From an uncultured Christensenella sp. (GTDB lineage Bacteria > Bacillota > Clostridia > Christensenellales > UBA1242): a stretch of DNA of 64,000 nt. The stretch is taken from NCBI GenBank assembly GCA_948466185.1, contig CAOJZM010000006.1, positions 11,448-75,447 of the forward strand, in the 5' to 3' direction. The position numbers and the translations under genes were made by a program. This document shows positions 63,710-63,737 of the stretch, piece after piece (the stretch's first letter is position 1; the number at the start of each line of letters is the position of its first letter). The notes beneath the pieces were generated by a model. It searched no databases. It saw only the letters and a program-made list of their open reading frames with translations, and had not been told where the DNA came from.

Positions 63710-63737
63710 ATTATAAAATCCCCCCCCACCTTGTCAA
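63710..63737 (-). promoter_or_regulatory. sigma-A-type promoter whose spacer contains a G8 tract (candidate phase-variable promoter)
   Basis: On the minus strand: TTGACA (63737-63732), the 16-nt spacer AGGTGGGGGGGGATTT, then TATAAT (63715-63710). It lies ~20 nt upstream of the ATG at 63689. Confidence 0.6.
63720..63727. repeat. C8/G8 homopolymer
   Basis: Read directly: aaaat cccccccc acc. Confidence 0.95.

Follow-up and report, generated by a model that had tools for sequence, protein, structure and literature searches.

A poly-G tract in the spacer of a consensus promoter as a candidate spacer-length switch in uncultured gut Clostridia

Promoter switches that operate by repeat slippage are textbook knowledge for Neisseria, Haemophilus, Bordetella and Mycoplasma. 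Promoters of the sigma-70 type depend on a spacer of 17 ± 1 nt, and for porA work by van der Ende from 1995 is said to have found that one-base steps around the 17-nt optimum lead to graded expression. In the AT-rich genome of Campylobacter jejuni, long poly-G is the typical hypermutable repeat and occurs at many loci for surface structures and glycosylation. An example of such poly-G contingency loci of C. jejuni is given in PMC3068675. In Neisseria meningitidis, the tract lies between the −10 and −35 elements of porA (poly-G), opc and fetA (poly-C), and its length sets the spacing and the level of transcription (PMC2791445). The same article cites hifA/hifB of Haemophilus influenzae, in which the repeat number varies in the spacers of divergent fimbrial promoters. 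Indels likewise switch the transcription of lipoprotein genes in Mycoplasma hyorhinis (vlp, whose promoters carry a poly-A tract) and M. mycoides (vmm, with TA repeats in the spacer; PMC10502178). For the Clostridia, phase-variable surface and signalling genes have been described in Clostridioides difficile (cwpV, flgB, cmrRST and pdcB/pdcC), where the mechanism is a recombinase-driven, site-specific inversion of promoter DNA and involves no repeat slippage (PMC11868660). A 2025 review describes phase variation in the Clostridia by inversion only and asks whether the multi-locus type is truly restricted to pathogens (PMC11868660). Our literature search likewise turned up inversion-based switching only, and none of the papers found describes a poly-G spacer switch for gut Clostridia; the first-pass annotation of the DNA analysed here had regarded spacer tracts as little described in sporulating Clostridia-like bacteria.

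The locus considered here was found in a stretch of 64,000 nt, which we refer to as the window. It resembles Neisseria porA, opc and fetA in that a G/C homopolymer occupies the promoter spacer ahead of a putative surface-protein gene. Unlike the Gram-negative pathogen Neisseria, the host belongs to the uncultured Gram-positive-type gut Clostridia, and both hexamers are perfect consensus; the gene controlled would, in contrast to porA, opc and fetA, be a near-orphan with lipoprotein homologues. The Mycoplasma vlp paralogues with their own tract promoters have a counterpart in tandem paralogues on one metagenomic contig (L183), and the hosts are Bacillota-related; Mycoplasma differs in that its repeats are poly-A or TA instead of poly-G, that it is a wall-less pathogen and that ON/OFF switching has been proven experimentally there. 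Coding tracts are shared with C. jejuni, here in a 182-aa gene, a GT2 glycosyltransferase gene and the gene of a PARCEL/LRR protein, whereas the tracts of C. jejuni are nearly all intragenic and about half of those found here lie in promoter spacers. As with hifA/hifB, the genes form a divergent pair, consisting of lemA and a 555-aa gene, in which a weak −35 element of lemA overlaps the −35 element of the 555-aa gene promoter (p555); a TA dinucleotide repeat is common to both overlapping promoters in hifA/hifB, whereas here the tract lies in the p555 spacer only. Taken together, we consider it well supported by comparative evidence, with a probability of roughly 75%, that the locus carries a spacer-length switch of the porA/opc/vlp type, which would be new for gut Clostridia.

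The promoter, its gene and the surrounding locus

The promoter occupies 63737..63710 of the minus strand and reads TTGACA-AGGTGGGGGGGGATTT-TATAAT, with the spacer laid out as AGGT-G8-ATTT. Its parts are as follows:

63732..63737, minus strand: −35 hexamer TTGACA, perfect consensus (sequence and promoter scan)
63716..63731, minus strand: spacer AGGTGGGGGGGGATTT, 16 nt (sequence and promoter scan)
63720..63727, minus strand: G8 homopolymer, the length-variable element and indel hotspot (rarity and comparison of six samples)
63710..63715, minus strand: −10 hexamer TATAAT, perfect consensus (sequence and promoter scan)
63692..63700, minus strand: Shine-Dalgarno sequence AGGAGAGGG (sequence)

The −10 box is separated from the ATG at 63689 of a 555-aa open reading frame by 20 nt, which include AGGAGAGGG. 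Sequence and promoter scan hence bear out what the first-pass annotation had described, namely two perfect hexamers around a 16-nt spacer, half of it G8, placed about 20 nt ahead of the start codon. The promoter scan and a separate scan of the whole window both identified this site as the only one in 64 kb that matches the consensus in 12 of 12 positions. By chance, a 12/12 hexamer pair alone is expected about 0.5 times per 64 kb, as estimated from base composition; it is the placement before a Shine-Dalgarno sequence and an ATG, combined with a rare tract inside the promoter, that exceeds chance. At a G+C content of 35.6%, the window contains only two G/C runs of at least 8 nt, C8 at 63720 and C9 at 61531 (plus strand), which are 2.2 kb apart, while the number of such runs expected in the window is 0.03–0.04 for C and 0.09–0.27 for G. 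Both the rarity of these runs and the second tract at this distance had been pointed out from the first reading of the sequence, and the run count agrees. Like promoters of the porA/opc/vlp type, p555 carries a homopolymer of about 7 nt or longer between its −35 and −10 hexamers, in this case the G8 tract. Transcription usually starts 6–8 nt from the −10 box, and going by this distance the start site would fall at about 63701–63704, leaving a leader of just 12–14 nt. An Rfam search found no RNA family near the promoter, the sub-threshold matches being confined to a terminator hairpin. A role of the tract in a G-quadruplex was considered and dropped, because one G run alone makes no intramolecular quadruplex.

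The genes and signals downstream of the promoter are:

62022..63689, minus strand: 555-aa gene (open reading frame list)
61947..61975, minus strand: the 182-aa gene's own promoter, TTGACT-17-TATAAT, 11/12 consensus positions, without a tract (promoter scan)
61381..61929, minus strand: 182-aa gene carrying the second tract (open reading frame list)
61355..61382, no strand assigned: predicted bidirectional intrinsic terminator common to the 182-aa gene and the convergent tilS

On the other side of the promoter, lemA starts at 63839 on the plus strand and is divergent from the 555-aa gene, the intergenic region being 149 nt long. No terminator was predicted between the 555-aa gene and the 182-aa gene, and the bidirectional terminator ends what is a putative 555-aa/182-aa transcription unit. 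The TilS protein encoded at 60026–61354 matches uncultured gut Clostridia MAGs only, the best match being 83% identical, and we therefore treat these MAGs as sister species; spoIIE adjoins tilS in related loci. In the sister species, lemA immediately adjoins the 182-aa gene, and the 555-aa gene and its promoter are absent (e.g. L086 3881–4001 and L092). Both are hence a species-specific insertion, and judged by this gene order the unit of gene and promoter appears to behave as a species-specific inserted cassette.

The N-terminus of the 555-aa protein is basic and then continues as a hydrophobic signal/anchor (LVGA-QAAA, with an AQA/A-like site), followed by a helical/coiled-coil part (residues 35–220) and two beta-rich modules (residues 222–554). 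The membrane-anchored coiled-coil product proposed initially is thus matched by a predicted signal/anchor N-terminus and a helical/coiled-coil region at 35–220. Searches against Pfam and NCBIfam assigned the protein to no family and returned sub-threshold coiled-coil noise only, and a search of species-representative genomes found no relative. The protein is a near-orphan, with two near-identical entries among 5.8 billion proteins and, among 1.84 billion representatives, only two remote full-length homologues (23–24% identity). An AlphaFold model, built from four sequences and of moderate confidence (pLDDT 69), comprises a disordered signal region, helices at 35–220 and two beta-plus-helix modules. 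The PDB fold matches are weak and consist of half-barrels resembling LolA, LolB and LprG (TM ~0.5 against the target) and of OspA. Model and matches would fit an extracytoplasmic protein of the lipoprotein type and are non-diagnostic.

Both homologues carry an LVGC lipobox, at the position where the window protein has LVGA-QAAA. They come from other species and from another neighbourhood, after tig-clpP-clpX, and both lie behind 12/12 promoters with a poly-G tract in the spacer that touches the −10 box:

L102/L103, 2430–2500: TTGACA-N9-G10-TATAAT, spacer 19 nt
L104, 2430–2500: TTGACA-N12-G6-TATAAT, spacer 18 nt

The 555-aa gene product would be exposed on the surface and subject to selection by host or phage.

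Tract length in same-species samples and in the neighbouring gene

Contigs of the same species were retrieved by exact-protein look-ups with the 182-aa protein, variants of the 555-aa protein and LemA, and are 99.2–100% identical to the window. In six independent samples, the promoter tract was found as G8, G8, G9, G9, G10 and at least G10, thus differing in single-unit steps:

window: G8, spacer 16 nt
ERZ14864787 (L099): G8, spacer 16 nt
ERZ12802814 (L084): G9, spacer 17 nt
SRR35797502 (L098): G9, spacer 17 nt
SRR35271099 (L001): G10, with AGGT changed to ACGT, spacer 18 nt
SRR29841525 (L097 and L083): at least G10, spacer at least 18 nt

Rather than being invariant between strains, which would have counted against the initial proposal of phase variation, the tract ranges from G8 to at least G10 over the six samples, and the gain of one G that was predicted to give the optimal 17-nt spacer is the G9 allele found in L084 and L098. 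The same-species alignment covers 14,169 bases and contains 73 substitutions along with five indel events, of which three fall into the promoter tract, one into the coding tract and one into an A/T run of the terminator. In the allele alignment, the promoter tract is the most variable site. The L099 contig is identical to the window over 476 nt and likewise carries G8. The occurrence of G8 twice and of G9 twice on slightly different haplotypes would be compatible with reversibility and is no proof of it; among the retrieved contigs, there was no pair demonstrably from the same strain that differed in tract length. Coverage is low in some of the assemblies (2–4x), with about 3x for L084 and about 2.4x for L099 according to the contig names. 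The lone indel outside both G tracts is located at about 61376, in the A/T run of the terminator of tilS and the 182-aa gene, and was seen against L083.

Sample SRR29841525 is represented by two contigs that break at the tract. L097 ends with 21 unique bases and G10, and L083 starts with G10 and 21 unique bases. Both contig ends thereby amount to exactly one 31-mer, as is predicted for a branch in a k=31 graph where G10 and a longer allele part. This is suggestive of mixed tract lengths within the sample, a reading that rests on contig ends, at which read error is possible. An exact scan of JGI metagenomes for the downstream flank of the promoter gave 0 matches, and the species is rare in these metagenomes.

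The second tract of the window lies within the 182-aa gene:

61531..61539, minus strand: G9 tract, codons 131–133 (Gly-Gly-Gly) of the 182-aa gene (sequence and alleles)

The products computed for its alleles are 182 aa for G9, 138 aa with the end GGGVFGHL for G10 and 139 aa with the end GGGIW..LI for G8, and database proteins match the predicted G8, G9 and G10 products exactly. At the DNA level, the G10 allele was found within the same species in L085. One sister lineage carries G8 in five independent samples with identical flanks and has G9 alleles too; in another, G9 is present on 22 contigs, and single G8 and G10 variants were deduced from the protein ends. Going by these alleles, the G9 coding tract is a classical translational frameshift switch with an ON state (G9) and OFF states (G8 and G10). 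Since such coding-tract alleles exist, G tracts in this lineage do slip. The 182-aa protein possesses no signal peptide, and searches against Pfam and NCBIfam returned a sub-threshold PGDYG match only.

Recurrence of the design in related species and metagenomes

Since the 555-aa protein is a near-orphan, TilS was used as the anchor in its place, and the survey set comprised 80 TilS-anchored loci of related species (L003–L082), which were analyzed as pieces of about 13 kb and add up to 0.9 Mb. G/C runs of at least 7 nt were located inside TTGACA..TAnAAT spacers (15–19 nt) in 9 of 16 cases, compared to 86 of 1342 runs of 4–5 nt that lie in such spacers (Fisher p = 2e-7); as some of the tract promoters are orthologous or paralogous, the independent events number fewer than nine. 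Under a second-order Markov model of the 80 loci, 13 G/C runs of at least 8 nt were observed where 2.1 were expected, a six-fold over-representation, and 6 runs of at least 9 nt where 0.5 were expected, while runs of exactly 6 nt were depleted. The genes behind the tract promoters encode, where readable, proteins with signal/anchor N-termini, including a BspA-type leucine-rich repeat (LRR_5) protein (E = 4e-56) and a PARCEL/DUF285 surface protein. Within coding sequences, a tract lies 62 nt into the gene of an 803-aa PARCEL+LRR protein in L017, and in L012 a tract marks the place where a GT2 glycosyltransferase gene is split. A gene that carries G9 and is intact in L010 has an orthologue in L011 that carries G8 and is split.

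Several features of poly-G contingency loci of the Campylobacter type recur here. Long G/C tracts exceed the expectation from base composition, in-frame and frameshifted coding alleles occur side by side (182-aa gene, L010/L011 and the GT2 gene of L012), and the association of tracts with surface, glycosylation or restriction genes is represented by LRR_5/BspA, PARCEL/DUF285, GT2 and lipoprotein genes. Exceptions from this association are the 182-aa gene and a HAD-domain gene; as the 182-aa protein is without a signal peptide, the tract-bearing genes are not all surface genes. Extrapolated from the 64 kb of this genome and the pieces of about 13 kb of its relatives, the density of tracts would be about 1 per 56 kb. 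More than half of the long runs in the 80 loci lie in promoter spacers and the rest are mostly coding, several of them frameshifted. As to strand, 10 of 12 promoter tracts have their G on the non-template strand (the exceptions being L072 and L082), and all five coding tracts have it on the coding strand (5/5; window, L003–L104). Ten strain-level loci (L105–L114), whose TilS falls into the 90%-identity cluster of L033, are without the tract-bearing cassette of L033. In the species of L019, the tract is G8 and also G7T, the sole variant allele thus being a substitution and no indel. Two independent Logan contigs of that species, L117 and L121, share their first base, which directly follows the −10 hexamer and lies 6 nt beyond the tract; a simple tract-length bubble fails to explain this shared start.

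Metagenomes were scanned with the pattern TTGACA-N6-10-G8-TAWAAT, which gave at least 120 matches. Among the matches listed, many come from the human gut and many lie on contigs with at least 50% G+C. The first downstream open reading frame had a signal-peptide-like start in 39 of 70 cases (56%) among the matches listed, as against 98 of 564 controls (17%), and combined a signal peptide with a lipobox in 18 of these 70 compared to 29 of the 564 controls. When the listed matches were grouped by gene across samples, 4 of 11 same-gene groups varied in spacer length, 3 of them by one G on near-identical flanks; alleles outside the pattern are invisible to the scan, so that 4 of 11 undercounts the variation in length. 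One length was kept in 7 of the 11 groups of listed matches, including a group of five samples that all carry G10, and many loci hence show a stable modal length. In the collected contigs L125–L204, again among the matches listed, the design with G8 or longer is common and extends to gut Firmicutes contigs of 50–60% G+C. The usual genes behind these tract promoters are, among the matches listed, those of small lipoproteins, e.g. a recurring ...LALSVLTGC... family. On L183, two tandem paralogues each have a separate G9 promoter.

Proposed mechanism, alternative explanations and wider reading

In the mechanism that we propose, the G8 tract is probably a spacer element that mutates by slipped-strand mispairing within a promoter of the sigma-A (sigma-70-type) class and would exert volume control of the porA/opc/vlp type. 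As both hexamers are perfect consensus, the strength of the promoter should hinge almost wholly on spacing. Replication slippage would add or remove G residues and thereby set the spacer to 16 nt with G8, to the optimum of 17 nt with G9, to 18 nt with G10 or to greater lengths, and the change in the spacer would result in heritable and reversible high, medium or low and eventually switched-off expression of the exported 555-aa protein. Since no terminator is predicted between the two genes, read-through into the 182-aa gene is possible, and the tract may also tune it; together with the G9 frameshift switch of the 182-aa gene, the promoter tract would form a two-switch contingency locus. On this reading, the promoter would be the one in use, expression would track the spacer length and switching would be frequent and reversible. 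Graded control appears more likely than an on/off switch, because the complete alleles (16–18 nt) are all within the active range of a consensus promoter.

The tract might instead be a passive mutational hotspot, i.e. an indel-prone sequence that lies in the promoter by happenstance and gives rise to a slow, effectively neutral polymorphism between strains. Such a hotspot would go along with the lack of a same-strain pair of differing length among the contigs found, with the many same-gene groups elsewhere that keep one length and with complete alleles that all stay inside the functional range of 16–18 nt. We nevertheless regard it as unlikely, as long tracts are six times as frequent as expected and those of intermediate length are depleted, as the long ones concentrate in consensus promoter spacers and in surface and glycosylation genes, and as the tract within the spacer is kept with the gene family across a protein identity of about 23%; without selection, homopolymers of an AT-rich genome should erode and not stay conserved in position. 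A G run that matters by its sequence and not by variable length, be it a protein-binding site or a spacer or extended −10 determinant, is quite improbable in our view. The position of the tract shifts, with ATTT placed before the −10 box in the window, in L072 and L082 the tract reads as C-rich on the opposite strand, the length changes by one G at a time between identical flanks, and similar tracts in coding sequences yield frameshift alleles; this outweighs that the tract touches the −10 box in many related promoters (G at −14 and −13) and that lengths are often identical between samples.

Errors of sequencing or assembly in homopolymers deserve mention because some of the short-read assemblies are of low coverage (L084 at about 3x and L099 at about 2.4x) and because Illumina indel error climbs in long G runs. 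G9 and G8 were, however, each found twice in independent samples, the coding G8 allele recurs in five independent samples whose flanks are identical, and elsewhere in 14 kb an indel is present in one A/T run only. As artefacts can also not explain that such tracts are present across species and where they lie, we deem this explanation very improbable. A similarly slim chance is given to the case that the 555-aa gene uses a promoter other than the consensus match and that the tract is irrelevant to expression, with transcription starting elsewhere in the 149-nt region between lemA and p555 or depending on an alternative sigma factor. The very short predicted leader (12–14 nt) would speak for another start, whereas the site is the sole 12/12 match in 64 kb and is located directly ahead of a Shine-Dalgarno sequence, and the same layout of consensus plus tract precedes the homologues and many genes for exported proteins.

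Beyond the single locus, the chances seem evenly balanced that a multi-locus poly-G contingency system operates in the uncultured commensal Clostridia of the gut and perhaps in many gut Firmicutes, those of higher GC among them. Its promoter part would be a portable module of consensus −35/−10 elements and a G-tract that travels with fast-evolving, often orphan lipoprotein or adhesin genes, and it would be complemented by coding tracts in glycosyltransferase and surface genes. Examples of such a portable module would be the insertion of the 555-aa gene, the presence or absence of cassettes between strains and the tandem paralogues with their own tracts. If true, this wider system would answer the question whether multi-locus phase variation by simple sequence repeats (SSR) is restricted to pathogens (PMC11868660). 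A poly-G spacer switch with allelic length variation in an uncultured gut commensal lineage would carry bet-hedging based on SSRs over to a sizeable and little-known portion of the gut microbiota, as would the fact that the design recurs ahead of lipoprotein and adhesin genes across related species and on many human-gut contigs. The design also flags a class of surface proteins that is likely under immune or phage selection. For such MAGs, heterogeneity in homopolymer length is biology and should not be polished off as noise, and assemblies can be interrupted by it at precisely these sites.

Two observations concern the region upstream of the promoter. The contig L101 (ERZ14864793, ~2x coverage) agrees with the window between lemA and a point some 10 nt upstream of the −35 box (~63748), past which it continues with an unrelated sequence, GCACTGATAGC..., which is absent from the window and from all fetched loci; it may represent another cassette at the same site in another strain or a chimeric low-coverage contig. 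At 63731–63758 on the plus strand lies a weak, 9/12 promoter-like site for lemA, whose −35 element TTGTCA is a near-palindromic partner of the p555 −35 element. A tract common to the lemA promoter was considered and dropped, since the tract is upstream of the weak lemA −35 element and the lemA spacer is unaffected. The lemA and p555 promoters may be arranged back to back, with the −35 region in common.
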